Source: Candidatus Dadabacteria bacterium
Lineage (GTDB): Bacteria; Desulfobacterota_D; UBA1144; Nemesobacterales; CSP1-2
NCBI GenBank assembly: GCA_963805855.1
Contig: CAWDVW010000002.1
Coordinates: forward strand, 416,001-480,000
Direction of reading: 5' to 3'
Length of the DNA: 64,000 bases
The notes beneath the pieces were generated by a model. It did not search any database, was not told the origin of the DNA, and worked only from the letters and a program-made list of their open reading frames with translations. The translations under genes were made by a program, and so were the position numbers. This document shows positions 6 to 27,141 of this stretch, one piece after another; within the stretch, counting starts at the first letter, position 1, and each line of letters starts with the position of its first letter.

Positions 6-1136
6 ATGGATCCTAGATCCCTGAAAGTGGAGTTGCAGAGTTACGGCGTTAGAATTCCTGATACCAAAGATATAAGGAGGGGTGGAGCAGGACCTACGGG
101 CGGATTACATCTAAAGATTCTTCCCGACAGTGAAGCGAACATTCCAGTGGTTGGAGGTTTCCTGGATTCCTCGCCCTATTATCTCGACCAGATTAATGGA
201 GAGTACTGGGTGTTTCGAGATGATGTAGCTCTAGCTCAGGTCGAGCTGATGAAGGACGCTAATTTTTATAACCACAAAACGTCAAACGGAATTCCGATGC
301 AGAAAATTGGGCTACTTCACTGCCCGACAACCTTCGCGACTACCCTTCTTCAGACCTGCGACTTCTGGGTAGATGAGCGGAGATGTAAGTTCTGCGGTAT
401 CGAGCTTACACTTAAGGATAGGAGCACAGTTGGTTTCAAGAATGCAAAAAGCCTTGTTGAGACGATTTTGCTTGCCAGGGAACTAGATGGAGTTTCGAAT
501 ATCGTTTTTACCTCGGGAGTTGCTCCGGATGAGGAAAAGGCATTACGAAAGTATGCCGAAATCTGTTCGGAAGTGAAGAGATTCACGGGTCTGCCAATAC
601 AGCTTCAAATTATTCCCCCTGAGGATCTGACCTGGCTTAAAAGACTAAAGGAATCCGGAGTTGACGCCTTGGGGGTTCATATAGAGACATTTGACCCAGA
701 TGTATTTGAAAACGTTACCCCTGGTAAAGCGAGAATTGGAGTTGACAAGTATGTGGAGACATGGAAGGAAGCGGTGAATGTTTTTGGCAGGTGGCAGGTA
801 AGTACATATGTTTTAGTAGGGCTCGGGGAGAGGATAGAAACAATAATCGAAGGAGCGTCATTATGCGCTGATTTGGGAGTGTATCCCTTTATAGTCCCGT
901 TCCGACCAATTGCCGGAACGCCAATGGAGAATGTAAAACCCCCAGAGCCAGAGATTATGAACTACGTTTATACAGAAGTCGCGAAGGTTCTCGCAAAATA
1001 CGATGGGGGGTCAAAGAGCAGCGGTGCGGGCTGTGTGAGCTGCGGAGAGTGCTCTGCACTTCCCGAGTTTGAAAGGGACTTCAAACCTAGCAATGTAAGT
1101 TTTAAAAAATTTATGAAATCAACTAAGGTAAGCTGA
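6..1136 (+). CDS. MSMEG_0568/Sll0785-family radical SAM protein (Nit1C NitD-like)
   Basis: N-terminal RRGGAGP motif, family-type cluster motif LLQTCDFWVDERRCKFCGIE, GVYPFIVPFRPIAGTP, and C-terminal GCVSCGECSAL; near an MSMEG_0565-type glycosyltransferase. Confidence 0.9.
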   Translation: MDPRSLKVELQSYGVRIPDTKDIRRGGAGPTGGLHLKILPDSEANIPVVGGFLDSSPYYLDQINGEYWVFRDDVALAQVELMKDANFYNHKTSNGIPMQKIGLLHCPTTFATTLLQTCDFWVDERRCKFCGIELTLKDRSTVGFKNAKSLVETILLARELDGVSNIVFTSGVAPDEEKALRKYAEICSEVKRFTGLPIQLQIIPPEDLTWLKRLKESGVDALGVHIETFDPDVFENVTPGKARIGVDKYVETWKEAVNVFGRWQVSTYVLVGLGERIETIIEGASLCADLGVYPFIVPFRPIAGTPMENVKPPEPEIMNYVYTEVAKVLAKYDGGSKSSGAGCVSCGECSALPEFERDFKPSNVSFKKFMKSTKVS

Positions 1137-1270: not shown

Positions 1271-2647
1271 ATGGCTCAAAACAAGTTACGTATTATTGTT
1301 GTAGGAGGAGGCGCCGGTGGGATTTCGTCTGCCTCAACCTCCAAGGTTATCGCCCCGGATTCCAAAGTTACTCTATTCACAGAATATGAAGATGTAGCCT
1401 ACAGTCCGTGCGGTATCCCTTTCGTACATGGAAGAGAAATTCCAGATTTCAAAAATCTGTTTCTCCAGACCTCAGAGCACTATGCAGAGGTAGGGATTGA
1501 TCTAAAACTCGAAACTACTGTTACGGGCATAGATGTAAAAGATAGGACTGTCAACGTCGGTTCAGATGTCTTCGAATGGGATAGGCTGATTCTCGCAACC
1601 GGTTTTGAATATGAAAAGCCGGAAATTCCAGGTGTGGGACTCCAAGGGCTTCACTATGTTAAGAACATCCGTAGCGCAATGGAATTTGACAAGGTTCTTG
1701 ATCAGCTAAAGAAGGCCGTTGTAATGTCTGCAACTCCTCTAGGTATTGAAATGACCGGGGCTCTCGCCCAGAGGGGTCTCGAGACTCATCTTGTGGAGGA
1801 GGGTGCATGGATAATGTCTGATGTGGCTGATCCTGATATAGTCGAACCAGTACAGCAGTCTCTCGAAGAGCTCGGTGCAAAACTCCACTTTGGCACTAAG
1901 GTCTTGGAGTTTAAAGGCTCTAATGGAAAGGTAACATCTGTAGTTACAAACAATGGCGACATCGACTGCGATGTTGTAATCGTCGCAACTCATAAGGTGC
2001 CAAACAACAGACTCGCTAAGGCTGCAGGCTTAGACATTGGAGCAAGCGGGGGAATCCTCGTAGATGATCATATGCGCACATCCGTCAAAGATGTCTATGC
2101 AGCAGGAGATTGCATAGAAGTCGTCCATGGCGTAACTGATTTACCAATACAGGGCCTTTCCGGGAGCCACGCCTATTCTCAGGGAAGGGTTGCAGGTGCT
2201 AACGCCGCGGGTGATGACCGGGCTTATGATCCGGTCTACATACCCTGGGGTATGGTAGGAGGGCACGTTCAGTTAGGGGGTGTTTCCCTTGGCGAAACGC
2301 TTCATAAGGCTTTAGGAATTCCTCACTTCGTTGCCTTTGCTCAAGGAATATCCAGAGCCAGATACTATCCGGGAGTTAGCAGAATACGTGTTAAGCTCAT
2401 CGCTGATCCGAAAACACTTCGAGTCATGGGTGCGCAGATGTCGGGCGGCGAGGGAATAAAGGAACGAGCAGACTTCCTCGCATTCACGATCAAACGCGGA
2501 GCCACACTGCATGACTATGCCTGGATGGAAAATGTTTATTCACCCCCGATTGGAGCGCTGATGGAGCCAATAGCGCTCGCAGCCCAAGCGGGACTGGCAG
2601 AATTGGCAAAGAGAAGATACGAAGCCCCCGAATTTGCCGGTACATAG
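1271..2647 (+). CDS. FAD-dependent pyridine nucleotide-disulfide oxidoreductase (CoA-disulfide reductase/NADH oxidase family)
   Basis: VVGGGAGG FAD-binding motif, YSPCGIP single redox Cys, LILATG, YAAGDC, C-terminal YSPP dimerisation motif. Confidence 0.85.
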   Translation: MAQNKLRIIVVGGGAGGISSASTSKVIAPDSKVTLFTEYEDVAYSPCGIPFVHGREIPDFKNLFLQTSEHYAEVGIDLKLETTVTGIDVKDRTVNVGSDVFEWDRLILATGFEYEKPEIPGVGLQGLHYVKNIRSAMEFDKVLDQLKKAVVMSATPLGIEMTGALAQRGLETHLVEEGAWIMSDVADPDIVEPVQQSLEELGAKLHFGTKVLEFKGSNGKVTSVVTNNGDIDCDVVIVATHKVPNNRLAKAAGLDIGASGGILVDDHMRTSVKDVYAAGDCIEVVHGVTDLPIQGLSGSHAYSQGRVAGANAAGDDRAYDPVYIPWGMVGGHVQLGGVSLGETLHKALGIPHFVAFAQGISRARYYPGVSRIRVKLIADPKTLRVMGAQMSGGEGIKERADFLAFTIKRGATLHDYAWMENVYSPPIGALMEPIALAAQAGLAELAKRRYEAPEFAGT

Positions 2648-2929: not shown

Positions 2930-3910
2930 ATGCTATTAATTGCAGAATCCGTAGGTTATAAGGCCAAGAAGGCCCTACAGAATCCCGGCACAAAATCTAA
3001 GATACATAGCGTATTCGATCATGCGTTTTATATAGAAGTTAATGAGAACAAATTGATTAATGTCATAACGACTATATCGTACATGAGTTCAACCTCTGTT
3101 CTGATAAAGAATACAAAAATGAAGAGTTTTAAACTATTGAATATTAAAAAAGGTATGCAAGTTACCTTAGACGATCGTCATATTGTGATCGGAGACAGTC
3201 TTGCAGCTATAAAACTTGATGGCTCCTCCACATATTCAAAACCCCCAGTCCCAAAAAAGGAATCAATAGAAAGTTTAGGTATGATAAGTTTGAATCTCAG
3301 GGTGCTTCGAGATGAAATATATAAATGCAGGAGCAGGGACGGTCTGGTCGATGTGTTAGAAAAGGTGGAAGTCACGGGCCCGCTCAACCTTTTTCTAAAA
3401 CCTCAAGAGATAAACCTTTCAGAGAGAGCAAGGCCTTATATTGAAAGGCTAATGTGGGGCCTCCACTGGGGCAATCCCGAGATGGTATTATCGAATGCGC
3501 AGTTGCTTCTAGGATTAGGCCCGGGACTAACACCTTCATGTGATGACTTTTTAGCAGGTTTGCTAATGAGTTTAAACTTCGCGGGCAAAGCTATCTTAAA
3601 AGATATTAAGCAGGAAACGGAGTTTTATAAGCTGATTTCTAACCAAATCTACAGGTCCGCAAAATCAAAAACAACTATATACAGCCTAAATAATTTAGAA
3701 GGTGCTTGTCATGGTGAAGGACCTAATGCAGCTGTGGATTTAATGCTCAGTCTACTAACAAAGGATGCAAATCAAGTTGCAAAGTGTACTCGTATCGTGC
3801 TGAAGATCGGAGAGACAACGGGCGCCGATATCGCAATTGGAGTTTACTATGGAATACGTTATTTGATTTCGCGATTAGAAGGTATAGAAGGCTATGATGA
3901 GATCGCTTAA
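2930..3910 (+). CDS. DUF2877 family protein (YlbF/YahE; AllH-like)
   Basis: GLGPGLTPSCDDFLAG and C-terminal IGETTGADIAIG motifs. Confidence 0.85.
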   Translation: MLLIAESVGYKAKKALQNPGTKSKIHSVFDHAFYIEVNENKLINVITTISYMSSTSVLIKNTKMKSFKLLNIKKGMQVTLDDRHIVIGDSLAAIKLDGSSTYSKPPVPKKESIESLGMISLNLRVLRDEIYKCRSRDGLVDVLEKVEVTGPLNLFLKPQEINLSERARPYIERLMWGLHWGNPEMVLSNAQLLLGLGPGLTPSCDDFLAGLLMSLNFAGKAILKDIKQETEFYKLISNQIYRSAKSKTTIYSLNNLEGACHGEGPNAAVDLMLSLLTKDANQVAKCTRIVLKIGETTGADIAIGVYYGIRYLISRLEGIEGYDEIA

Positions 3911-5078
3911 GATAGCCTTATTTACATATTCAACTAAGCCGAGAGGAGGCGTCGTACATACGCTCAGATTGGCCGAGGAATTAATCGGTCTAAAACATGA
4001 CGTACATGTTTATACCCTATCCACCGGGAATGGTTTTTATAGAAACGTAGACGTTCCCCATACACTTATCCCCTGCCCGGTGGTGAACTATCCAAGCATC
4101 GATGAAAAGATAGAAAGCTACATCCGAATCTACTACGAATATCTCTCGTCCGTAAGAGATCTTTACGATATCTACCACGCTGAGGATTGTATCTCAGCAA
4201 ATGCACTATTAGAACTGCGCGATAACGGATTTATCAAGTCGTTTGTAAGGACCGTCCATCACCTGGATGATTTCACTTCTAAATCCTTGATTGAATGCCA
4301 GTCGAAAAGTATATTGAAACCGGATTTTGTTATGGTTGTTAGCAGATACTGGGAAAGAGAACTGCGCTCGCTATACTCCTTAAACCCTATACTAACTCAA
4401 AATGGAGTGGATCTCGACAGGTTTTCAAAAGCTAAAGGAGACAAATATTCAAAAGAGTTAGCGAAAAATAGGTTTTCGGTCAATGGTTACAGGGTAATTT
4501 TGAGTATAGGGGGAATCGAACCCCGGAAGAATACGTTAACCACGCTCAGGGCGTTTAACATTGCAAGATCGCATTTTATGAAAAAGGGTGAGCGGGTGAT
4601 ATGGTTAATCGGAGGCGGAGAAACACTCTTTGATTACAGGGCATATCGCGAGGAATTCTTTTCTCAAGTCGAGAGGCTAGGACTCAAAATGGATCAAGAC
4701 ATAAGAGTTCTTGGGAATATACCAGAAGTGAATATGCCATACCTTTACGACGCGGGAGATATATTTGTATTTCCGTCCCTCAAAGAAGGATGGGGACTCG
4801 TGGTGCTTGAGGCCATGGCATCAGGAGTTCCGGTTATCGCTTCCAATATTGAACCGCTGACCGAGTATTTAAAGGATAGTGAGAACGCTGTTCTTATTCC
4901 TCCCATGGACCATGAAGCTCTGGCTCAAAAGATAATAAGTGTTTTGGAAAACGAAGACCTTCGAGAAAAACTGGCAACAAATGGACTGAGAACTGCCAAC
5001 TCCTATAGCTGGAGCAAGACAGCGTTAATGCACTCGGAGTTTTACCACCGAATTTCCAGACCCGTCATACCAGTTTAA
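3894..5078 (+). CDS. MSMEG_0565-family glycosyltransferase (GT4)
   Basis: TYSTKPRGGVVHTLRLAE, HAEDCISANAL, RTVHHLDDF, GGIEPRKN, EGWGLVVLEAMASG. Confidence 0.9.
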   Translation: MMRSLKIALFTYSTKPRGGVVHTLRLAEELIGLKHDVHVYTLSTGNGFYRNVDVPHTLIPCPVVNYPSIDEKIESYIRIYYEYLSSVRDLYDIYHAEDCISANALLELRDNGFIKSFVRTVHHLDDFTSKSLIECQSKSILKPDFVMVVSRYWERELRSLYSLNPILTQNGVDLDRFSKAKGDKYSKELAKNRFSVNGYRVILSIGGIEPRKNTLTTLRAFNIARSHFMKKGERVIWLIGGGETLFDYRAYREEFFSQVERLGLKMDQDIRVLGNIPEVNMPYLYDAGDIFVFPSLKEGWGLVVLEAMASGVPVIASNIEPLTEYLKDSENAVLIPPMDHEALAQKIISVLENEDLREKLATNGLRTANSYSWSKTALMHSEFYHRISRPVIPV

Positions 5079-5237: not shown

Positions 5238-5684
5238 CTAGGAAGCTGCGATCTGCTGCATCGACCAGATTAGCGCGAGTACTTCTGTGACATTGACAGG
5301 CGGTCCGCCGCCGATATCTGCCGCGTGGACCTCAATGGTCTCACCGAATATGTTGTAAACGTGGCGCTCCCCAACCCCGCTCAGGCTGTCGCTGACCAGA
5401 TCTATGGCTCGCTCAGCATCTGAAAAGTCCTCGTGCCAGGAGTTAAATGCAACTAAGTCCCTTGTCGTCACATGCTGAACAATTGCTCGAGCCCTGTATT
5501 TATTTTGATCAACTACCCATTCGATCGTTGAAAATGGCCATAGCTGATACACGGTCACACCCGGTTGAAGATTGTAATTTTTCTTCTCACCGATAACTCC
5601 AACGGAAAACCTCAAACCACCTATCGCAAGCTCGGTGCCTGGGATGATCTTAGGTGGCTTTCGTGCGGGATTCTTTTTTTTCAT
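5238..5684 (-). CDS. Hypothetical protein
   Basis: 148-aa ORF with strong RBS (AAGGAGG) upstream; no family recognised. Confidence 0.55.
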   Translation of the reverse strand: MKKKNPARKPPKIIPGTELAIGGLRFSVGVIGEKKNYNLQPGVTVYQLWPFSTIEWVVDQNKYRARAIVQHVTTRDLVAFNSWHEDFSDAERAIDLVSDSLSGVGERHVYNIFGETIEVHAADIGGGPPVNVTEVLALIWSMQQIAAS

Positions 5685-6311: not shown

Positions 6312-6761
6312 ATGGAAGTTCAGGCTGTCTGGAAAAGAAATTATCAGGTCGAGGTAAAGGCAAGGCAATTCAACGTACCCATAGATGAAGCGCCGGAGTT
6401 CAATGGTGAGGACACAGGTATGATGCCGACTGAACTATTCCTCTGCTCGCTAGCTTCTTGCTATTGTCTTTCTCTCGTATATGTTGCTAAAAAAAAACAA
6501 TTGAAGCTTAAGGATATGCGGGTGAATGTAATAGGCAAAAAGGACAAAAAACATTTCACGTTCTCAAGACTGATCGTAGAGGTTGAGAGTTCGTTACCAT
6601 CACGGGATATAGAAGAAATTATCGATCCTGCGATAAAATATTGCTATGTGAGTAATACGGTGTCCAAATCATGTCCGATTGAATACGTAGTTAGTAAGAA
6701 GACAGGGGACAGAATGCAGGAGACAGGAGACAGGAGAAAAAAATCTCTTCGTAACTTGTAA
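6312..6761 (+). CDS. OsmC family protein
   Basis: DEAPEFNGEDTGMMPTELFLCSLASC and KYCYVSNT; C-terminal tail encoded by a heptamer repeat. Confidence 0.85.
   Translation: MEVQAVWKRNYQVEVKARQFNVPIDEAPEFNGEDTGMMPTELFLCSLASCYCLSLVYVAKKKQLKLKDMRVNVIGKKDKKHFTFSRLIVEVESSLPSRDIEEIIDPAIKYCYVSNTVSKSCPIEYVVSKKTGDRMQETGDRRKKSLRNL
6701..6735 (+). repeat. Heptamer tandem repeat (GACAGGA-like x5)
   Basis: gacaggg gacagaa tgcagga gacagga gacagga, inside the OsmC 3' end. Confidence 0.6.
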
Positions 6762-6797
6762 CTTGTGTATTCTGAATACTTTTGGAGGAGAAATATC

Positions 6798-7256
6798 TTG
6801 GCGATAAAGTTCAAAATCAAAAAAGGCTATTTTCAAGATGCGCTGCGTTTGATGCGAATTTCCAAGAATATAAGTGACATCGAAGGAGTCGAAAAGGCCG
6901 TTGCAGTAATGGCCACGGAAAAGGCCAAATTTGCGCTGAAAGACGCCGGTCTGATGACCGCAGAAATAAATGAGGCAAGTGGAAGCGATCTGGCGATGGT
7001 CGTCCAGGGTAAATCTGTAGAAATTGCAGAGAAAACGTTAGAAAAGATGGAAGAGATGGTATCCTCGGGTGGTGCTCAGGCCAGGAGGCCGTCCTCATCT
7101 AATATACTTAACGATGAGATTCAAGCCATAAATATCGGACTTGAGACCTTTAAGGACGCATTAGAAGCTCAGGGGGTAAAGGTAAAGCACGTCGACTGGC
7201 AAGTCCCCGCAAAGGGAGACGTGAAATTAATAAACATTCTGAAGAAGTTATATTAA
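6798..7256 (+). CDS. Mini-FdrA (N- and C-terminal FdrA segments only)
   Basis: TTG start after GGAGG; YFQDALRLMRIS..GVEKAVAVMATE resembles the FdrA N-terminus and INIGLETFKDALEAQGVKVKHVDWQVPAKGD the FdrA C-terminus. Confidence 0.7.
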   Translation: MAIKFKIKKGYFQDALRLMRISKNISDIEGVEKAVAVMATEKAKFALKDAGLMTAEINEASGSDLAMVVQGKSVEIAEKTLEKMEEMVSSGGAQARRPSSSNILNDEIQAINIGLETFKDALEAQGVKVKHVDWQVPAKGDVKLINILKKLY

Positions 7257-7387: not shown

Positions 7388-7954
7388 ATGAGCATTAGAA
7401 ATCCTGAGAGATTAAGAGAGGTTCTGTCTAACCCTAAGGGGCTTGCACGGGCGTTTAGCCGTCACACCTATGGGATGCTTTCCTGGGTGGATTTGTTCGG
7501 AGCAAAGTTAAAGTCAATAAGAGGGATCGAAATGAAGCTGATCACGTCTAGGATAATTGCCGACAATGCGAAGCACGCGAAGCTCTTTTCCGAAAGAGCC
7601 AGAGAACTGGGCGAGAATCCTGAAAAATATAAGCCGCCTCAAATCGGGCAAAAGATATATGATATCCTCGAATCCTATACCGATCCAATTGACGAATTTG
7701 CTTACGCCTGGGGATCCCTGATACATTTTTCTGCCTTACTAGAGATATATCGCAGCGTCGCAGATCCAAGGAGTCGAGAAATAATTGAGGAGATTCAAAG
7801 GGATGTTAAAGAGCACTTAACCGTACTTGAGAGATATTTTGAAAAAGAATTACTCACACCTGAAAGGCAAAAACGCGCCGAAGAGGTTAAAATGATAGCT
7901 GACAAAATCTACACCGATAGAGAAGATGAGGAGATAATTTGGTATGCAGCATAG
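7388..7954 (+). CDS. Ferritin-like domain protein
   Basis: Helical pattern with paired D/ExxH motifs (ADNAKH, RDVKEH) and RARELG. Confidence 0.65.
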   Translation: MSIRNPERLREVLSNPKGLARAFSRHTYGMLSWVDLFGAKLKSIRGIEMKLITSRIIADNAKHAKLFSERARELGENPEKYKPPQIGQKIYDILESYTDPIDEFAYAWGSLIHFSALLEIYRSVADPRSREIIEEIQRDVKEHLTVLERYFEKELLTPERQKRAEEVKMIADKIYTDREDEEIIWYAA

Positions 7955-8798
7955 GTTGACGCCAACTTTGGAGGAGTTGCTTACAAACCTGCCCTTCTAT
8001 AGTCCAAGGAGATGGTATTTTGACTTGGCTTCTCTTTTTCTAAGGTCAATCGGGACGTGTTCCGAAGGGATAAAACTAGGGTTTAAACATGGTTTCGATT
8101 CAGGAATGATCATGAACTATATTTACAATAATACGCCGACTGGTAGATTCTACGTGGGTAAACTCATAGACAGCATTTTTTTAAATCAGATTACCTGCAA
8201 GGCTTTCAGAGCGACAAAAGATATACAGAAGAATATGATCAAGGATTACATTCAAGAGAGAAATGGCAACTCGACCTTTGTAGTTGATTTGGCATCGGGA
8301 AAGGCCGACTACGTCTACGACGTTCTCCGTGACACTGACGCATCTGTTAAGGTTCTTCTTCGTGACATTGATAAAAGCGCGTTAATGGAAAGCAGAGAAA
8401 TCGCTAAAAATTTTGATTTAGAAAACGTTGTTAGCTATGAACTTGCAAATGCTCTCGACTCTCACAGTCTGAGCAGGATTAGTCCGAAACCCAATCTTGT
8501 AATCGAGGTAGGACTTTATGGAATTATCCACGATGACGAGCAAATAAGATCGCATCTCAAGGACCTTAAAAATATACTTGATCCAGATGCAGTTCTTTTT
8601 AACGTTCAAACGTACAATCCCCAGATCGAACTGATAGCTAGGACGCTTAAGAATCAAGCTGGAGAAAGATGCGTATGGCATCTACGTTCTGCAGGTCTTG
8701 TGATAGATTGGGCAGAGGAGGCCGGATTCAAAGATCCGAATGTCATCATGGATCCATATGGAATTTACGCGGTTGTCATGATGAGAAACGGCAATTAA
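7944..8798 (+). CDS. Class I SAM-dependent methyltransferase (YnbC C-terminal / Methyltransf_20-like)
   Basis: SEGIKLGFKHGFDSG..YIY..G..GKLID, VDLASG motif I, D.YGIY.V end. Confidence 0.8.
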   Translation: MQHRLTPTLEELLTNLPFYSPRRWYFDLASLFLRSIGTCSEGIKLGFKHGFDSGMIMNYIYNNTPTGRFYVGKLIDSIFLNQITCKAFRATKDIQKNMIKDYIQERNGNSTFVVDLASGKADYVYDVLRDTDASVKVLLRDIDKSALMESREIAKNFDLENVVSYELANALDSHSLSRISPKPNLVIEVGLYGIIHDDEQIRSHLKDLKNILDPDAVLFNVQTYNPQIELIARTLKNQAGERCVWHLRSAGLVIDWAEEAGFKDPNVIMDPYGIYAVVMMRNGN

Positions 8799-8888: not shown

Positions 8889-10292
8889 GTGGGCAAAGAG
8901 AGATTCGTACTAGGATGGGAAGGTGGAAGCGAAGATTCATTTGATATCAAAGATATTGTATCTGATAGGGTAAGATCTGTTATAGAAAGTCCGCATGGAA
9001 TGTGGAACTACATGACATACAGGGATGCAATAGGGATATTGGGCTTAGATGCCGGGGAGATATACAGAGAAGGAAGGATTGATTTAGATCCCAAAGAATG
9101 GGCTGATTTTGGCTGGATGTCTTGCTACGCTGGACCTCCCAAGAGCGCCATCAAAGAAATGAAATCCAGAACAAAGGCATCAAACATTAATCCCTATTCA
9201 CCTGATCTTATTAATCCGCTCAGGGATGCGTGTGCTTTATTGAAATTCAAACGACCTAGAGGAGAAGAATTTGAAGTCATAGGAACGGAGGGAGGACAGG
9301 CAGGAATTTCTTACTTTCTCCAATCTACTCTAAATCCCGGAGATGAAGTCATTATCACCGATCCGGGATATTTCCATTTTGAATCTGCAATTCTTATGGC
9401 CAGGGGCGTGCCGGTGAGGATTCCTCTTGATTCTAAAAATGGGTTCTGTTTAGACCCCGACGAGGTCAAAGATTGTATCACTCCCAGGACAAAAGTTTTG
9501 ATTATCTGTGACCCGATTAATCCTTTCGGAACCATTCAGTCCAGAGAGAGTCTATTAGATCTAATCGAGCTTGCGAATAAATCCAATATTTTGATCCTTA
9601 ATGATATTACCCATAACACGCATCAAATCGACCCGACTGCACAACATTACGCGATGAGTTCACTGTGGAGGGAAATTAATGTTGACAGGGTGGTTTCGGT
9701 CTTCAGCGTGTCGCATGGGTATGGAATGGCGGGTGTCCGCATCGGATTCCTGGCCGGCCATCCCAAGCTTATGAGAACATGTTTGTTGACTAAAATTTCT
9801 TTAACCAGGCTTAATACCAATTTAATTGCTCAGTACGGCGCCATTGCAGCATTAAATGATCATGCATACATTCAGAAATCAGAAAAGATTATAAGACGCA
9901 ACTACCGGGTCATAAAGGGCATAATCGATAATACCGAAGGGTTATCGATTCCGGTAGAACCCAAGTACGGATTTTCAATGGTCTTGGATGTTTCTGGAAC
10001 CGGGGTAACTGCCCAGGAATTGACCGTGGCTTTATTTAAACACCGAGTAGCTGTATATCCCGGAGACGGGCTGGGAGATATTGGTGCAACTGACTACATA
10101 AGGCTTAATATTTCCCGTCCGGACATTTGGGCATTTAGGCATTTTCGCAATGTTCTGCCGATGGCTGTCGAGGAAGCGAAATCGGGTATTTATCGCAACA
10201 GCGTCGCCCAATTTTTTAAGGGTAAGAAAACAAAGCGTGCTCGCAATATCTTACAGAAAATGAATGATTTGCATCTGGCTCGAGAACCTTAG
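8889..10292 (+). CDS. Fold-type I PLP enzyme (class I/II aminotransferase family) with His at the Schiff-base Lys position
   Basis: PGDEVIITDPGY, DPINPFG, NDITH, SVSHGYGMAGVRIGF (canonical SxSKxxGxxGxRxG), YIRLN; GTG start after AAGGAG. Confidence 0.85.
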   Translation: MGKERFVLGWEGGSEDSFDIKDIVSDRVRSVIESPHGMWNYMTYRDAIGILGLDAGEIYREGRIDLDPKEWADFGWMSCYAGPPKSAIKEMKSRTKASNINPYSPDLINPLRDACALLKFKRPRGEEFEVIGTEGGQAGISYFLQSTLNPGDEVIITDPGYFHFESAILMARGVPVRIPLDSKNGFCLDPDEVKDCITPRTKVLIICDPINPFGTIQSRESLLDLIELANKSNILILNDITHNTHQIDPTAQHYAMSSLWREINVDRVVSVFSVSHGYGMAGVRIGFLAGHPKLMRTCLLTKISLTRLNTNLIAQYGAIAALNDHAYIQKSEKIIRRNYRVIKGIIDNTEGLSIPVEPKYGFSMVLDVSGTGVTAQELTVALFKHRVAVYPGDGLGDIGATDYIRLNISRPDIWAFRHFRNVLPMAVEEAKSGIYRNSVAQFFKGKKTKRARNILQKMNDLHLAREP

Positions 10293-10475: not shown

Positions 10476-11729
10476 ATGGAAAAGATAGAAGGAGTTTCAG
10501 TAGAAAAGCTTGTCAATGATTTCGGTTCCCCCCTTTTCATTGTTTCTGCTAAGACTATCAGAGAGAATCTAAAGAGGTTTCGTAGCGAATTTTCAACTAG
10601 GTATCCAAAAGTTGAAGTAGCCTATTCCTATAAAGTTAACTGTCTGAGTGGGGTGCTGGAGATAATACACAATGAAGGGGCATGGGCCGAAGTAGCCTCT
10701 GGCTTTGAATATGAATTAGCAAGAAAGATCGGAGTTCCTGGTAAATCCATTGTTTTTAACGGTCCCTACAAGAAAAAAGAGGAAATTAACAAGGCAATTG
10801 AAGAAGGCGCCTTAATTAATGTTGACAACGAAATTGAATTAAAGCTGTTGGAGGAAATTGCATCCGAATTTCAAAAGCCAATTGAGGTGGGTATCAGACT
10901 AAATACCGATGTTGGGATAAAGCAGTTGCCTGATAGATTTGGATTTAACATTGAATCAGGCAGAGCCTTGGAGATCGTAAGCTACTGTACAACGAAAACG
11001 CCAATCAGGATAGTAGGGGTCCACATCCATCTGACAAGCTACATCATTTCCCCTGAAGTCTTCAATAGTCAGACCCCTGCAAAGAGTATAGAACTTATCT
11101 GGCCGAAAGACTCAAATTTGTACAGGCTAGCGGCGGATAAAATAACTGATTTTGCCGACGAAATAAGAAAGAGATTTGGCATAAGCTTAAAGTACATTGA
11201 CATGGGAGGCGGGTACCCGACACTTGATTCTATCACAGCCTATGCAGACGCGATAGCTGAGCCGATTCTGGAGGCTTTCAATCACATCCACCCCCTATTG
11301 ATACTGGAACCTGGAAGAGCAATTGTAAAGGATGCTGTACAGATGATAACAACAGTAGTAGGCGCTAAAGAACTCATGAACGGAATTAGGTCAATCGTGG
11401 TTGATGCGGGAATTAACATGATTCCGACATCTTCTTGGAAGTTTCAGGAGATCGAACCCGTGGCTAAAGGTCGCGGCAACCTACGAGAAACGATTGTCTA
11501 TGGGCCACTTTGCCTTCAGACAGACATTTTGGGTATAACAAAACTCCCACATCTGAACGTGGGAGACAGGCTTGTTATAAAAAACGTCGGCGCATATAAC
11601 ATTTCTCAATCTAGTTCGTTTATATTCCCGCGCCCTATTATAATTCTTATTGATAAAAACAAGGTAACAGTTCTAAGACGTTCAGAAACAATAAAGGAGA
11701 TTTTATCTTACGAAGACCGCATATCGTAA
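10476..11729 (+). CDS. Group IV PLP-dependent decarboxylase (diaminopimelate decarboxylase-like)
   Basis: YSYKVN (PLP Lys), AEVASGFE, FNGPYK, RFG, DMGGG, LEPGR, GPLC, GAY. Confidence 0.85.
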   Translation: MEKIEGVSVEKLVNDFGSPLFIVSAKTIRENLKRFRSEFSTRYPKVEVAYSYKVNCLSGVLEIIHNEGAWAEVASGFEYELARKIGVPGKSIVFNGPYKKKEEINKAIEEGALINVDNEIELKLLEEIASEFQKPIEVGIRLNTDVGIKQLPDRFGFNIESGRALEIVSYCTTKTPIRIVGVHIHLTSYIISPEVFNSQTPAKSIELIWPKDSNLYRLAADKITDFADEIRKRFGISLKYIDMGGGYPTLDSITAYADAIAEPILEAFNHIHPLLILEPGRAIVKDAVQMITTVVGAKELMNGIRSIVVDAGINMIPTSSWKFQEIEPVAKGRGNLRETIVYGPLCLQTDILGITKLPHLNVGDRLVIKNVGAYNISQSSSFIFPRPIIILIDKNKVTVLRRSETIKEILSYEDRIS

Positions 11730-12821: not shown

Positions 12822-13454
12822 CTAAATTTCTTGACAGACCCACCTGTAGCTATAGGAAATTTCATAATTATTGTCTTTTTTATCTCTAGCCTGTCCGCAA
12901 ACCACTTCTGCATTAAGAATTAACTTATTATCTTGGCTCGAGATGATATTTTTATACTGTGGGCTGCATTGGCCGCTGCACCTCTCGTACAGATTTTTAC
13001 CATCTTCTCCCTTACCCTGCGAAAATTTAGACAACCAATTCTCGAGAGCTTGCATCGTGTCAAATTCCTTTTCACTGTACGTAAACGGAGTTTTTTCAGT
13101 TTCACCCTGCAACGTTTGGCACTTTTCTTGTTGATCATAACCAGTTAAGAAATTATTCGGTATAGATTGGAAAACAATCAGAGGCTTATCGGGAAGTTGG
13201 CAATCAGATGGGCAAAGATCAGTCGGTTTTTCCGCATTCGCTAAATTGGTCTCGGCTTTGTTTAACATCTCTTTCGTTTCAAAGCGAATCGATCCTTTTT
13301 TATTTTGAGCGTTTGCCAACATGGAAGCTGAAGCGAGGCTTGACTCTATTTTAGCATCTCTGATATAAGACGAGCAATCTTTATCCGCTTCGGCTTTTAC
13401 GAGGATTGAAATAGACATTATAACCATTAGATAAAGTGATATTTTGAATCTCAT
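12822..13454 (-). CDS. Secreted Cys-containing hypothetical protein
   Basis: Signal-peptide-like N-terminus, 8 Cys, RBS GGAGG. Confidence 0.65.
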   Translation of the reverse strand: MRFKISLYLMVIMSISILVKAEADKDCSSYIRDAKIESSLASASMLANAQNKKGSIRFETKEMLNKAETNLANAEKPTDLCPSDCQLPDKPLIVFQSIPNNFLTGYDQQEKCQTLQGETEKTPFTYSEKEFDTMQALENWLSKFSQGKGEDGKNLYERCSGQCSPQYKNIISSQDNKLILNAEVVCGQARDKKDNNYEISYSYRWVCQEI

Positions 13455-22731: not shown

Positions 22732-25700
22732 TCACACAATACCTTTACCCAAATAAGCCCTAAGCTTGGGTGAAACCCTTCTTTGAACAAGGGTCTTATG
22801 GATATGCCATCTTTCCTCAGCCCCGAACTCTTTCAAAAACCTCAATTCTTTCCCTTCTTTGATTGCCACGGGCTCGCCGTCTCTGTAAAGAATGCGGTTG
22901 TTGAAAAGTGAGGGCACACGCCTGCCCGGCGTTATGATGCCCGTAAGATTGACTGGATCTGCTGCACTGATTGAAATAAGCTCCCCGGTTTTGGGCTGTC
23001 TTCTTATTGCGCGAAGCTTCCCCACCGCCTCGGGCAAAGCGAATTGCTCTCCCCAAACCCCCTCAACAAACCTACCCCCTCTTATTTCACCCCGTGCTTC
23101 AAGTATCCTAAAGACCCTGACCAGGTCTCTCCACGGGGGTACCAGATTCTCACGGTCAACGAGTCTTCTAAAGACAACCCCATACCTCCGTAGTAACGCT
23201 CTGGCTACCACTATCAAGGACTCCCCGTCAGTTTTGATATCATCTTCAGTAGTTGTTCCGTAATGAATCAGAGACCAGCGTCCAGCCTCTTCCATTCCAA
23301 AGCTGATACCCTGTCTCCGTCGCCTGCCCTTACCCGTCCGGTATTTCGACTCTACCAGAAGTGACCTTAGCCCAGAAAAGCTATCGGATGTCAACAATCC
23401 GACTGCAACCAGCTCCGCCAAAGCTACTTCGACCTTTGACCTCAAGAGGCCTGTCTTTGAAACTACATCCTCGAAAAATGATGCCCCCCTGGTTCTTAGA
23501 AGCGCCAAAACCTTCACCGTGTCGTTTGACAGCTTGTCGATGTTCTTGGCGGACGAGAAATTCAGTTTCTTCCAATAATCAAAGTTTGATCTTGTTACAA
23601 AGGTAATGGGACTGCTTTTTACAGGGCTAGGATTCCTATCACCATTCTTTTCAGCAGCTCGATTTCTGAATCTCCCCCATACCATATAGCCCGATAGACA
23701 TAACATATCCAGCCAAAGATGATCATAATCCGTCATACGAGAGGGTAGTAACTCACCCTCCCACGAAGCCGCAGGAGCCTCAAACCCTTCGAGCTGATTC
23801 AGCACTTCCTTCAAAGCCTCCGGCCCCTCGGGCTTTTCATCTGATCCCAGTGCGTGCCACGAAAACAAGAACCGCATAAAGTCTACGGCTGGTACTGGTT
23901 CTATCTCCTTCCTTAGGCTTTTCAACGTGTATTTATGAATTCGCGCTAAAAGCCTCCGCTCACACCATTCAAGATCATCGATGCCAGGGGTAAAATGTCC
24001 TCTGAAGACAAAACCCTCATTCTCCAGCGTAATCAAAGCCATTTCTATCTCCGATACTGGCATCCCCATTGAACTGGAAAGGTCGATGGATCGGATGGGC
24101 CCGAGTGCTTCCAATCTTCCCCTCACAACTTCAACCAGAGCCCTCTCCTTCGAAGTAATGCCCTCTGACAATTTGTCAGGTATTTGCAGCAACGGATCCA
24201 TATCCGAATTCGGAAAGATTAAATTCATCTGCGGGATTCTCTCTACCGCCACCCAGAACTCGTAACCACTCTCCGTACTTAAAACGCAAGCTCTCTTTTC
24301 ATTCTTCAATTCGGTAAAATATTCCTCCCAACCACCGTAACCATCCCCTCTTATCCCTTCTTCAGCAGTCAGAAAACCCGACAAAACCAATGCGTCGTGC
24401 AGCTCATCTGCATTTCCTACCTGTGGCCATGCCTCGTTTTTCACAGCATTTATCGCGTCGGCACTCAATTTGCCCAAATCCGCTGCTTCAACTGGGTCAA
24501 GCCATCTTCGGTTCTGCACAGCATTTGAGCGACGTTCTTCCAGCGGGGCGTCATCCAAGAATGAGTATGGACGAGCGCTTAATATCTGGCCTGCAAGCGG
24601 TGAAGGTTCCTTTAGATCCATTGTTACAAGCTTTCTTTCACCGTTATGTATCGAAGTAAATAGATTCTCAATTTCGTCAATATCCATCGCCTCATAAAGA
24701 CAGTCGTGAATGGTTTGATTCACCAACGGATGATCGGGAATCTCTCTTTCCCCCGTGATGTTTTCTTGACACGCTAATTGATCGGGAAAAACCAGAGCGA
24801 GAAGGTCTTCCGACTGGATCCGCTGGATCGCCGGGGGCACTTTACTTCCTGCTCGACGCCTCAGCACTGCAAGCGCTCTTGATGCATTCCAGCGCCAGCG
24901 TACCCCAAACATAGGAGAGTCAAGAAGTGCCTGGGTTAAAACATGTCGAACAGTGTTAGGGCTTAGATAATAAAAGACCTCATCCAGAGGGAAACTATGA
25001 GTCGCTCCCAGTGATAGAATTATTGAATCTTCTGTTGCAGCCGCCTGAAGCTCAAAATTGAATTTCCTGCAAAATCGCTTTCGAAGGGCCAGTCCCCATG
25101 CGCGGTTGAGCCTGTTCCCGAATGGGGAATGAATGACTAGATGCATCGCTCCAGCCTCATCAAAAAAACGCTCCATGACTAATGTATCTTGTGAAGGCAT
25201 TACTCCGAAAGTAGCCTTCACAGCCGCAAGATAGGTCACCAATTGATCGGCTGCTTCTTGACTCAAGCCGACTGCGGGCACGAGCCAATCGATAGGTTCT
25301 TTTTTCCACTCATCATTTATCGGTCTCTCCGCATTGTCACGGGTATTATTTAACTTATCCAAATCCCCGACACGACCTGAGATTTCTTCCCTAAATCTGG
25401 ACACTGCAAATGAGAGTTCAGCAGTCCTCGCAGGCGCTTCCCCAAACCAGAACGGAATCGTCGGAGGCTGACCCTGTGCATCTTCAACACGCACCTTGCC
25501 CCCCTGGACGCCTAAGATCCTCCACGAGTTATTGCCCAGGAGGAATATATCTCCCGCCACGCTTTCGATCGCGAAGTCCTCATTAACCGTTCCGATAAAT
25601 GTATCCGTCGGTTCGAGAATCACATCGTAATCGAAGTTATCCGGAATGGCCCCACCTGAAACGAGCGCCGTGAGCCGTGCTCCCCGTCGAGCCCTCAGCC

Positions 25701-27141
25701 TCCCATTTACAATGTCACGATGAAGGTACGCACCTCTTCTTCCCCTCTGCGTGGCGTAGCCTTTGGAAAGCATATCAATCACGGCGTCAAACTCTTCACG
25801 CGATAGGTTTCTGAATGGATAAGCACGGCAAACCAGATCAAACAACTCCGATTCTTCGCACTCCCTTGAAGAAACCTCCGCGACGATCTGCTGGGCAAGA
25901 ATATCAAGAGGCTTCTCAGGCATGACTGTGCTGTCCAGCTCCCCACGCCTTATGGCATCCAGAAGGGCCACGCACTCAACCAGCTCATCCAGCGACAGTG
26001 GAAAGAGTCTCCCCTTTGGAATTCCTTTTACGGTGTGACCAGAGCGCCCCACTCGCTGTAATAATATGGCTATAGATCTGGGTGAGCCAATCTGGCATAC
26101 GAGGTCTATCGAGCCAATATCTATCCCAAGCTCTAATGATGAAGTCGCGACCAACGCCCTAAGCGAGCCTGATTTCAACCGCTGTTCCGCATCCAAACGG
26201 ATTTCTTTTGATATGCTTCCGTGATGCGCCGCTACGATCTCGGTGCTAAGCCTCTCCGTTAAATTATGAGTCATCCTTTCAGCTAAGCGCCTTGTATTAA
26301 CAAATATCAGTGTGGTATTGTGCCCATTGATTAGCTCCTCCAGCCTTTCATAAATTTCACCCCAAACCTCATTCGACATTACCGCGTTAAGTGGTGAGGC
26401 AGGAACTTCAATCTTAAGATCTAAATCTCTCTTGTGTCCAGCATCAAGGATGCTGCAATTCAAACCCTCGATATTCTTTGCAGGTCCGTTTCCTATTAAA
26501 AAGCGTGCCACCTTTTCAATCGGCTTTTGGGTCGCCGAGAGTCCTATCCTGATCAGATCCTTTTTAGTTAAAGCATCCAACCTTTCAAGCGATAGTGAAA
26601 GGTGTGACCCGCGCTTATTCCCAAACAGAGCGTGAATCTCGTCAATAATTGCCGTGTCAACATTGGAAAGCATATTTCTTCCATTTTCACTGGTAAGTAG
26701 CAGGTACAGAGATTCCGGCGTGGTCACGAGTATGTGAGGCGGGTGCTTGATCATCGCTGTTCTTTCAGAGGTTGAAGTATCGCCTGTGCGGACCAAAACC
26801 TTTATCGTTATCTCGGGCAAACCTGATTTTTTCAACTCCTCGCCGATCCCTCTGAGTGGCATTTGAAGGTTACGTTCAATATCATTACTGAGTGCTTTAA
26901 GTGGCGAGACATAGACGACCTGTGTTTTCTCCTCGAGTCGCCCTTCGAGACCCTGCTTAACCAGATCATCGATCGTAGATAAGAAAGCGGCAAGCGTTTT
27001 CCCTGAACCTGTAGGAGCCGATATCAGTATATTTCGACGCTTCTGAATCTCAGGCCAGGCCCTAACCTGAATATCGGTAGGCTCCTCAAACGTATTTCTA
27101 AACCAATTTGCAACAGAGGAATGGAATCTTTCTAAAGGCAT
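22732..27141 (-). CDS. lhr: Lhr-like DEAD/DEAH-box ATP-dependent helicase
   Basis: [31 protein letters not shown]-terminal [24 protein letters not shown]. Confidence 0.95.

Follow-up and report, generated by a model that had tools for sequence, protein, structure and literature searches.

Several vitamin B6-dependent enzymes of fold type I, namely ColD, E1 (also AscC/DdhC) and SpnQ, carry a histidine in place of the catalytic Schiff-base lysine and hold their cofactor untethered. This histidine abstracts the C4' proton of pyridoxamine 5'-phosphate (PMP) and drives elimination, and the exchange H220K turns E1 to transamination (PMC8987622). Here, we describe a protein with the same replacement in a different family of this fold. 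It is encoded in a 64,000-nucleotide stretch of DNA from a Candidatus Dadabacteria bacterium (GenBank assembly GCA_963805855.1, contig CAWDVW010000002.1, positions 416,001 to 480,000 of the forward strand), hereafter the window, and is a member of the class I/II aminotransferase fold without the Schiff-base lysine; we refer to it as ATHis. Its histidine, His276, is real and selected, neither a sequencing error nor a product of chance, and on comparison of sequences we think it probable, with some reserve, that ATHis is a working vitamin B6 enzyme that gave up the internal aldimine. An earlier reading of the same DNA (the original prediction) had named ColD and E1 as precedents for a histidine at this position, and the published account agrees on this point (PMC8987622).

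ATHis differs from these precedents in several respects. ColD, E1 and SpnQ are PMP-dependent nucleotide-sugar 3-dehydratases of the DegT/DnrJ/EryC1 family, whereas ATHis belongs to PF00155, keeps the Arg for the substrate alpha-carboxylate, has no Fe-S cysteines and is encoded in a cluster of the Nit1C type rather than in a deoxysugar operon. Aspartate and prephenate aminotransferases of subgroup Ib (1J32, 1BJW, 1DJU, 6F5V) share with it the residues for the phosphate, the ring, N1 and the carboxylate, but have Lys and an O3' Tyr where ATHis has His in both cases; ATHis is also longer, by about 80 residues at the N-terminus and 55 at the C-terminus, which are modelled as helices. An identical substitution in this position and fold was engineered in aspartate aminotransferase (AspAT) as K258H, and the title of that work (Malashkevich et al. 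1995, Biochemistry 34:405) reportedly speaks of residual activity without the lysine that binds pyridoxal 5'-phosphate (PLP). That protein is a laboratory mutant of a transaminase, in contrast to ATHis, whose histidine occurs naturally, is fixed throughout a clade and comes with further changes in the pocket. Literature searches, judged by titles and abstracts, turned up no description of a natural Lys-to-His class I/II aminotransferase.

A histidine at the Schiff-base position

ATHis is read from a frame that starts with GTG, and an AAGGAG, a strong ribosome-binding site, lies six bases 5' of this start (for coordinates see Table 1). Its match to PF00155 (Pfam) reaches 117.6 bits (cut-off 19.7; 9.7e-34) and spans residues 83-408, whereas PF01041 covers residues 132-242 only, with 32.5 bits, and PF00266 and PF01053 are likewise partial. 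The best PDB sequence matches in phmmer are AspAT 1J32 (E 1.3e-30) and then 1DJU/1GD9. In these alignments H276, which lies in the stretch S-V-S-H-G-Y-G-M-A-G-V-R-I-G, falls on the Schiff-base Lys of ...FAKTYAMTGWRVGF (1J32) and ...FSKTFAMTGWRLGF (1DJU), as the original prediction had held. Its two further observations, that the DExY motif reads DITH and that the frame is otherwise intact, were also borne out: residues 239-242 are D-I-T-H, H242 being aligned to the Tyr in DE(I/V)Y, and the 467 codons contain no stop. Databases label close homologues 'pyridoxal phosphate-dependent aminotransferase', a name that is probably wrong.

The gene is present as one copy in the genome (3.11 Mb, 93.84% complete), where ordinary aminotransferase homologues are found as well. 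All 121 sequences compared, the window protein and 120 homologues (66-99% identity), have H276 and H242, and 120/121 have D239. The site string Y103-Y161-N211-D239-H242-S273-S275-H276-R284(-R405) is identical in 46/46 species-representative genome loci, two of which end before R405; the titles of these loci are mostly Candidatus Dadabacteria or Thermodesulfobacteriota. In contigs from three public runs, each of a different study (X1, X2, X3) and one of them perhaps the window's own source sample, no difference is listed at the codon for residue 276; a further run (X5) does not cover it. The public runs listed as carrying the sequence are of DNA, with the labels salt marsh, marsh, mangrove, soil or plain metagenome, and no RNA run is among them. 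A sequencing or assembly error, or a pseudogene in decay, has therefore a vanishingly small chance of explaining His276, given the intact frame with its strong ribosome-binding site, the His in every homologue and genome locus, and the same codon in three runs. The earlier judgement that an error was unlikely can stand, and the orthologues, now checked for conservation of the histidine, have no Lys here.

Related lineages and the origin of the histidine

An exhaustive search of 1.84 billion cluster representatives returned few full-length relatives (55-42% identity, 551-387 bits), followed after a sharp drop by ordinary aminotransferases at ~139 bits. The residue at the site in the best 150 representatives is His in 15 and Lys in 108; 22 do not cover it and five have another state (two Thr, one Ser, one Asp and one gap). 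A scan of metagenomes with an alignment of the non-Dadabacteria relatives as the query returned 80 loci, of which L048-L095 are members of the family. The family as analysed consists of 151 rows, grouped by the residues at positions 207, 211, 238, 239, 242, 273, 275, 276 and 284: 121 rows of group A (Dadabacteria, including the window protein; C-N-[ND]-D-H-S-S-H-R), ten of group B (V-N-H-D-H-S-S-H-R), six of group C (C-N-A-D-H-G-A-H-R), two 'N' rows (L073, P0123) that combine N239 with H276, and 12 of group K (C-N-N-N-H-G-S-K-R), which have Lys at the site and Asn at 239. Groups B and C are known from metagenome contigs only. H276 is found in 139/139 rows of the His clade, including those of groups B and C, two more lineages in which it is fixed (47-51% identity); between groups A, B and C the identity is only 47-53%.

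A maximum-likelihood tree was built from 57 hand-chosen rows, i.e. 38 His rows, 12 Lys rows and seven ordinary aminotransferases as the outgroup, with loci admitted if they covered at least 400 residues and with nine of the 120 Dadabacteria proteins included. His and Lys rows together form a clade with 100/100 support, on a branch of length 2.8 that sets it apart from the ordinary aminotransferases. A single branch (ultrafast bootstrap 93, SH-aLRT 81) has all 38 His rows on one side, and one Lys/His change suffices in 98% of 200 bootstrap trees. As the outgroup has Lys, His is the derived state, with one origin.

The Lys sister clade (P0121, P0273, L058-L063, L070, L082) resembles ATHis in its sequence (40-55% identity), in its N- and C-terminal extensions and in the T-H motif, but differs in having Lys at 276 with Asn at 239. 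The two positions covary: all 12 Lys sisters have Asn at 239, where the His forms have Asp. H242, in contrast, is found in 12/12 Lys sisters and in all 151 family rows, and the His of the DITH motif therefore predates the Lys-to-His change. The Lys sisters (L058-L063, L065, L066, L070, L082; P0121, P0124, P0273), with Asn for the N1 Asp and His for the Tyr225-type residue, have an unusual PLP site in their own right. The genes of the Lys sisters have other neighbours than ATHis. A GntR/FCD regulator adjoins the gene in three of the Lys-sister loci scanned (L059, L062, L070), followed in two of them (L059, L070) by a sodium:solute symporter, and no Nit1C-type neighbour is seen in the eight Lys loci long enough to judge. 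The contigs of the closest Lys relatives (P0121, L048, L056) are too short to show gene context.

Fold and residues of the cofactor pocket

The AlphaFold2 model of ATHis (pLDDT 93.4, pTM 0.92) has an AspAT-like standard core, to which N-terminal helices and two C-terminal helices are added. Its top Foldseek match is AspAT 1J32 (E 9.5e-27, TM score 0.86 by target), and the top fold matches are AspAT and prephenate aminotransferases (TM scores 0.83-0.87 by target). No sugar aminotransferase is among the top 35 listed fold matches, and a protein atlas lookup returned generic aminotransferase clusters only.

Residues were mapped to AspAT via the phmmer alignment to 1J32/1DJU. In AspAT numbering, we take Y103 to be Tyr70* (phosphate), G135 to belong to the phosphate loop, Y161 to stack on the ring, N211 to be Asn194 (O3'), D239 to be Asp222 at the pyridine N1, H242 to occupy the position of the Tyr that contacts O3', R284 to be the phosphate-binding Arg266 and R405 to be Arg386, which binds the alpha-carboxylate. 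Y103, G135, N211, H242, R284 and R405 are listed without variation for all five groups (A, B, C, N and K). Y161, which is aligned to a Trp of 1J32, does not vary in groups A, B and C (137 rows) or among the 12 Lys rows, and D239 is kept in 135/137 rows of A, B and C and is Asn in the 12 K rows and both 'N' rows. Invariant across groups A, B and C are 79 of the 467 positions, which include nine of the 12 canonical cofactor and substrate positions (hypergeometric p = 1.1e-5), in keeping with purifying selection on the pocket. The sole Lys invariant in the His clade is K302. As 1J32 has a Lys at this position in addition to its own catalytic Lys, K302 is not a replacement, and no other Lys would seem to take the site.

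An Asp and two His (D239, H242, H276) are jointly conserved in the His clade, where the Lys sisters have Asn and Lys, and could in principle hold a metal, or some ligand other than B6. Such a re-purposed pocket is improbable in our view, since the invariance of R284, Y103, G135 and the ring-stacking Y161 is sensible only with a phosphorylated pyridine cofactor, and the positions of Asp222 and Lys258 in AspAT lie at opposite ends of the ring. A metal site formed by C207, H242 and H276 was considered separately and set aside, C207 being Val in group B.

That ATHis is a PMP-dependent dehydratase of the ColD/E1 type, with a nucleotide 4-keto sugar made for the GT4 glycosyltransferase of the cluster as its substrate, is a shade less credible still. 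This would account for the His at the Lys position, as described for ColD, E1 and SpnQ (PMC8987622), and a glycosyltransferase of the MSMEG_0565 family is indeed part of the cluster in all three lineages. However, ATHis is placed in PF00155 and not in the DegT family, to which it has the partial PF01041 match only, and its nearest folds are amino-acid aminotransferases. None of the 79 positions that do not vary across groups A, B and C is a Cys, hence there is no [2Fe-2S] motif of the E1/SpnQ type, and no nucleotide-sugar 4,6-dehydratase or nucleotidyltransferase was identified in the window cluster or the region upstream, no genome-wide search having been made. The sugar substrate that the original prediction had entertained is thus unlikely, given R405 in all 151 rows and the 32.5 bits for PF01041 versus 117.6 for PF00155.

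Linkage across genomes and lineages

A methyltransferase of the PF12147 family (Methyltransf_20, hereafter MT20) is encoded directly upstream of ATHis in 46/46 Dadabacteria loci (group A) and is also found in group B loci. A decarboxylase resembling the N-citrylornithine decarboxylase FslC adjoins or overlaps ATHis in 7/46 group A loci, comes after a CysK/CBS-like PALP gene in 28/46 and is not in the locus in the remaining 11/46, some of which are cut. The decarboxylase and an OsmC-family protein co-occur with ATHis in groups A, B and C, the MSMEG_0565-family GT4 gene is in the cluster of all three lineages, and copies of an oxidoreductase resembling CoA-disulfide reductase (CoADR) in group B and C loci are 52-57% identical. 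The gene set of groups B and C is rearranged relative to the window, so that the three lineages have different gene orders. Group B loci contain genes for MSMEG_0572-like and PuuR-like proteins, carbamate kinase, FdrA, GT4, OsmC, a helical protein, MT20, ATHis, the decarboxylase and a flavoprotein, with neighbour identities of only 30-57%. In group C, ATHis comes directly after carbamate kinase, is divergent from MSMEG_0572-like, Amidohydro_2, radical S-adenosylmethionine (SAM) and GNAT genes, and is followed downstream by the decarboxylase, FdrA, GT4, OsmC and a flavoprotein.

Among 120 genomes of the phylum, ATHis was found in 52, MT20 in 53 and the radical SAM protein in 50, and these are the same genomes except six (59-90% complete). 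In genus g19 the same 9/36 genomes carry all three. In several genomes the radical SAM gene is on a contig other than that of ATHis, or shares its contig but lies tens of kilobases away. ATHis is linked to the whole Nit1C-type cluster and not to the glycosyltransferase alone. A second, stand-alone MT20-ATHis pair, also with His, is found outside the main cluster (L021, L025, L041, L014, L015, L017) and adjoins genes for MsrB, glutamate dehydrogenase and an MFS transporter in L021. Since L041 and L045 come from one metagenome-assembled genome that also has the full cluster, the two genes of the pair were duplicated together. A predicted complex of ATHis with MT20 scored 0.00, which we count as evidence neither way.

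The pairing bears on whether ATHis is a pseudoenzyme, which would bind a ligand, or scaffold or regulate the neighbouring methyltransferase or decarboxylase, catalysis having been lost with the Lys. We regard this as unlikely, though it is a serious alternative: a missing Schiff-base Lys usually marks a PLP homologue as dead, the O3'-contacting Tyr is replaced too, and ATHis is tightly paired with MT20, including in the duplicated pair. Yet the residues for the phosphate, the ring, N1 and the alpha-carboxylate are invariant at 47-53% identity, which is unexpected for an idle pocket, the His shows no drift in the 139 rows of its clade, and group C has ATHis without MT20.

Two observations on these loci are added here. 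In most Dadabacteria (28/46; e.g. L023, 9386..10330) the PALP gene between ATHis and the decarboxylase is CysK/CBS/cysteate-synthase-like (loci include L008, L011-L013, L016, L018-L020, L022 and L023); it is missing from the window's family, and the closest match to it in the genome of the window reaches no more than 38% identity. Three apparent fusions, P0152 (MT20 with the ATHis N-terminus), P0172 (ferritin-like ... ATHis) and P0147 (ATHis ... decarboxylase), were rejected, as their long Arg/Pro-rich out-of-frame stretches point to frameshifted high-GC assemblies.

Gene neighbourhood

Genes in the window around ATHis are listed in Table 1. The cluster extends 10 kb upstream of the window, within a 14-kb stretch (L132, G000:C2:402000-416100) that encodes an AgcS carrier, an MSMEG_0567/Sll0786 GNAT protein (TIGR04045, 161.4 bits, cut-off 68.45), an sll0787 AIR-synthase-like protein (TIGR04049, 335.8 bits, cut-off 321.3), a PuuR-like regulator, AllG, FdrA, carbamate kinase, an Amidohydro_2 protein and an MSMEG_0572/Sll0783 (DsrE-like) protein (TIGR04044, 174.2 bits, cut-off 109.85). 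Together with the AllH-like gene of the window, these upstream genes give a full oxamate-carbamoyltransferase-like set (AllF/G/H and carbamate kinase).

Table 1. Features of the ATHis gene and of its neighbourhood, with positions counted from the first letter of the window
Feature	Position	Strand	Extent, match or conservation
MSMEG_0568-family radical SAM protein	6..1136	+	TIGR04043 336.1 bits (cut-off 303.7)
Pyridine-nucleotide-disulfide oxidoreductase, CoA-disulfide-reductase-like	1271..2647	+	PF07992; TIGR03385 274.7 bits, below cut-off
AllH-like protein (oxamate carbamoyltransferase subunit family)	2930..3910	+	PF11392, 2e-20
MSMEG_0565-family GT4 glycosyltransferase	3894..5078	+	TIGR04047 387.6 bits (cut-off 259.85)
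148-aa open reading frame (ORF) interrupting the cluster on the opposite strand	5238..5684	-	no Pfam match
OsmC-family protein	6312..6761	+	PF02566, 1.6e-18
163-aa protein like the FdrA N-terminus	6765..7256	+	NF004760 74 bits, below cut-off
188-aa helical protein, weakly ferritin-like	7388..7954	+	PF13794 6.2e-5, below cut-off; 3EZ0 E 0.004
PF12147 (Methyltransf_20, MT20) SAM-dependent methyltransferase, directly upstream of ATHis	7944..8798	+	2.7e-56
ATHis, Lys-less class I/II aminotransferase-fold protein	8889..10292	+	467 aa, uninterrupted ORF
D239-I-T-H242: N1 Asp kept, O3'-contacting Tyr replaced by His	9603..9614	+	
CAT, codon 276, His at the Schiff-base Lys position	9714..9716	+	alignment to solved AspATs
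R284, presumed phosphate-binding Arg	9738..9740	+	invariant in 151/151 family rows
R405, presumed alpha-carboxylate-binding Arg	10101..10103	+	aligned to the Arg of IRLS in 1J32; invariant in 151/151 family rows
Fold-III PLP decarboxylase, closest to N-citrylornithine decarboxylase FslC	10476..11729	+	PF02784, PF00278

With the radical SAM and GT4 proteins of the window, five signature families are present above their cut-offs, as in the known Nit1C/gpr clusters (Pseudomonas nitB-H, Synechocystis sll0783-0787 and Mycobacterium smegmatis MSMEG_0565-0572). Beyond these, the cluster described here has AllF/G/H-like proteins, carbamate kinase, Amidohydro_2, OsmC, CoADR-like, MT20, ATHis and the decarboxylase. 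In the genome (93.84% complete, as given above), the best match to the sll0784-type nitrilase (TIGR04048) reaches 225.4 bits against a cut-off of 502.6 and lies on another contig, and the best match to the MSMEG_0569 flavoprotein (TIGR04046) reaches 22.9 bits against a cut-off of 498.35. With neither protein above its cut-off, the cluster is a nitrilase-less variant of Nit1C/gpr. The M. smegmatis cluster is GlnR-induced, gives peroxide resistance and raises the NADPH/NADP ratio (PMC6039565). By analogy, this peroxide phenotype would fit the OsmC and disulfide-reductase-like additions seen here.

The decarboxylase downstream of ATHis matches the FslC model NF041039 with 200 bits, below the cut-off, and the structure 7KH2 at E 3e-48. 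H26, H63 and H113 are invariant in the helical protein upstream of MT20; a reading of this protein as a di-iron oxygenase was set aside, as it has no conserved di-iron ExxH pairs. Further into the window are a Cys-rich 210-aa ORF without a family match, located after a TonB-like gene (12822..13454, minus strand), and a 1469-aa ORF (22732..27141, minus strand).

MT20 deserves a separate description as the immediate neighbour of ATHis. Its AlphaFold2 model (pLDDT 92.3) is closest to 3OCJ and then to small-molecule methyltransferases, with SgvM and MrsA, two alpha-keto-acid C-methyltransferases, among them (TMq 0.55-0.56), and its SAM-binding signature is kept (D115, G119, D141 and D172 invariant). 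A sequence search found no related solved structure, and profile searches gave weak matches only (CysG 0.0015, MppJ about 0.4; TIGR04543 weak too). This suggests, as a lead only, that MT20 may be an alpha-keto-acid C-methyltransferase, the E-values not separating it from other small-molecule methyltransferases. On the models, its fold would be compatible with a keto-acid substrate shared with ATHis, again as a lead. Literature searches turned up nothing on PF12147.

A proposed role for ATHis

Fixation of the His in a whole clade, within a cluster tied to nitrogen starvation and stress, suggests that ATHis is probably a working, non-standard B6 enzyme, and the retention of the residues for the phosphate, the ring, N1 and the alpha-carboxylate makes a B6 enzyme acting on an alpha-keto or alpha-amino acid likelier than a sugar dehydratase or a dead protein. 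In the model that we propose, ATHis would bind PMP or PLP non-covalently and, because R405 is kept, its substrate would be an alpha-keto or alpha-amino acid and not a nucleotide sugar. His276 would take over the acid/base role of the lost Lys as a proton shuttle at C4' and C-alpha, a role that His has in ColD and E1 and, reportedly and weakly, in the engineered AspAT K258H. As His versus Lys decides between elimination and transamination in E1, we slightly favour, by analogy, a reaction through a PMP-ketimine in which a 2-oxo acid would lose a C3 substituent by elimination, over plain amino transfer. Judging by linkage, ATHis may serve a nitrilase-less variant of the Nit1C/gpr nitrogen-starvation/peroxide-resistance cluster, with the FslC-like decarboxylase, MT20 (in two of the three lineages) and the CysK/CBS-like enzyme (in many Dadabacteria) as candidate partners.

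A far more specific version of this proposal, which we put forward as a speculation with the odds against it, is that ATHis could be the first PMP-dependent, Lys-independent enzyme of the amino-acid aminotransferase family, in which His276 would promote elimination of a C3 substituent from a 2-oxo acid, with the chemistry of ColD carried over from sugars to keto acids, as a committed step to a small redox or organosulfur metabolite of the cluster. Such a product would explain the OsmC, CoA-disulfide-reductase-like, DsrE-like and CysK/CBS-like proteins nearby.

Several points weigh against the view of ATHis as a B6 enzyme without an internal aldimine. The pocket is not fully canonical, as H242 stands for the O3'-contacting Tyr and positions 273 and 275 are Gly and Ala in group C. 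At position 239, a Val is found in one row of group C (L071) and an Asn in two rows of the His clade (L073, P0123). How H276, H242 and D239 would be arranged around a cofactor, and that no other base is present, is deduced from the alignment. MT20 is absent from the three long group C loci, and the methyltransferase can therefore not be essential to the chemistry of the His. The linkage seen within the Dadabacteria is partly inherited synteny among related genomes, so that the counts overstate independence. Finally, if the closest Lys relatives (P0121, L048, L056) share the cluster, Lys and His might be interchangeable.

Significance

To our knowledge, Lys-to-His as a switch from transamination to PMP-dependent elimination is known only in one sugar-enzyme family, that of ColD, E1 and SpnQ. 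Here, a clade within the amino-acid aminotransferase family has the same exchange in fixed form, across three or more distant lineages. Where the Lys was lost, the N1 Asp is retained, while Asn takes its place in the Lys sisters, which offers a natural case for what the internal aldimine is for. We also know of no explanation for the chemistry of the Nit1C/gpr cluster, which in M. smegmatis is tied to nitrogen starvation and peroxide resistance. ATHis is a marker of the nitrilase-less variant of this cluster, and, with a cofactor state that sequence comparison predicts to be unusual and that would be readily assayed, it may provide a practical entry to the Nit1C-type pathway.

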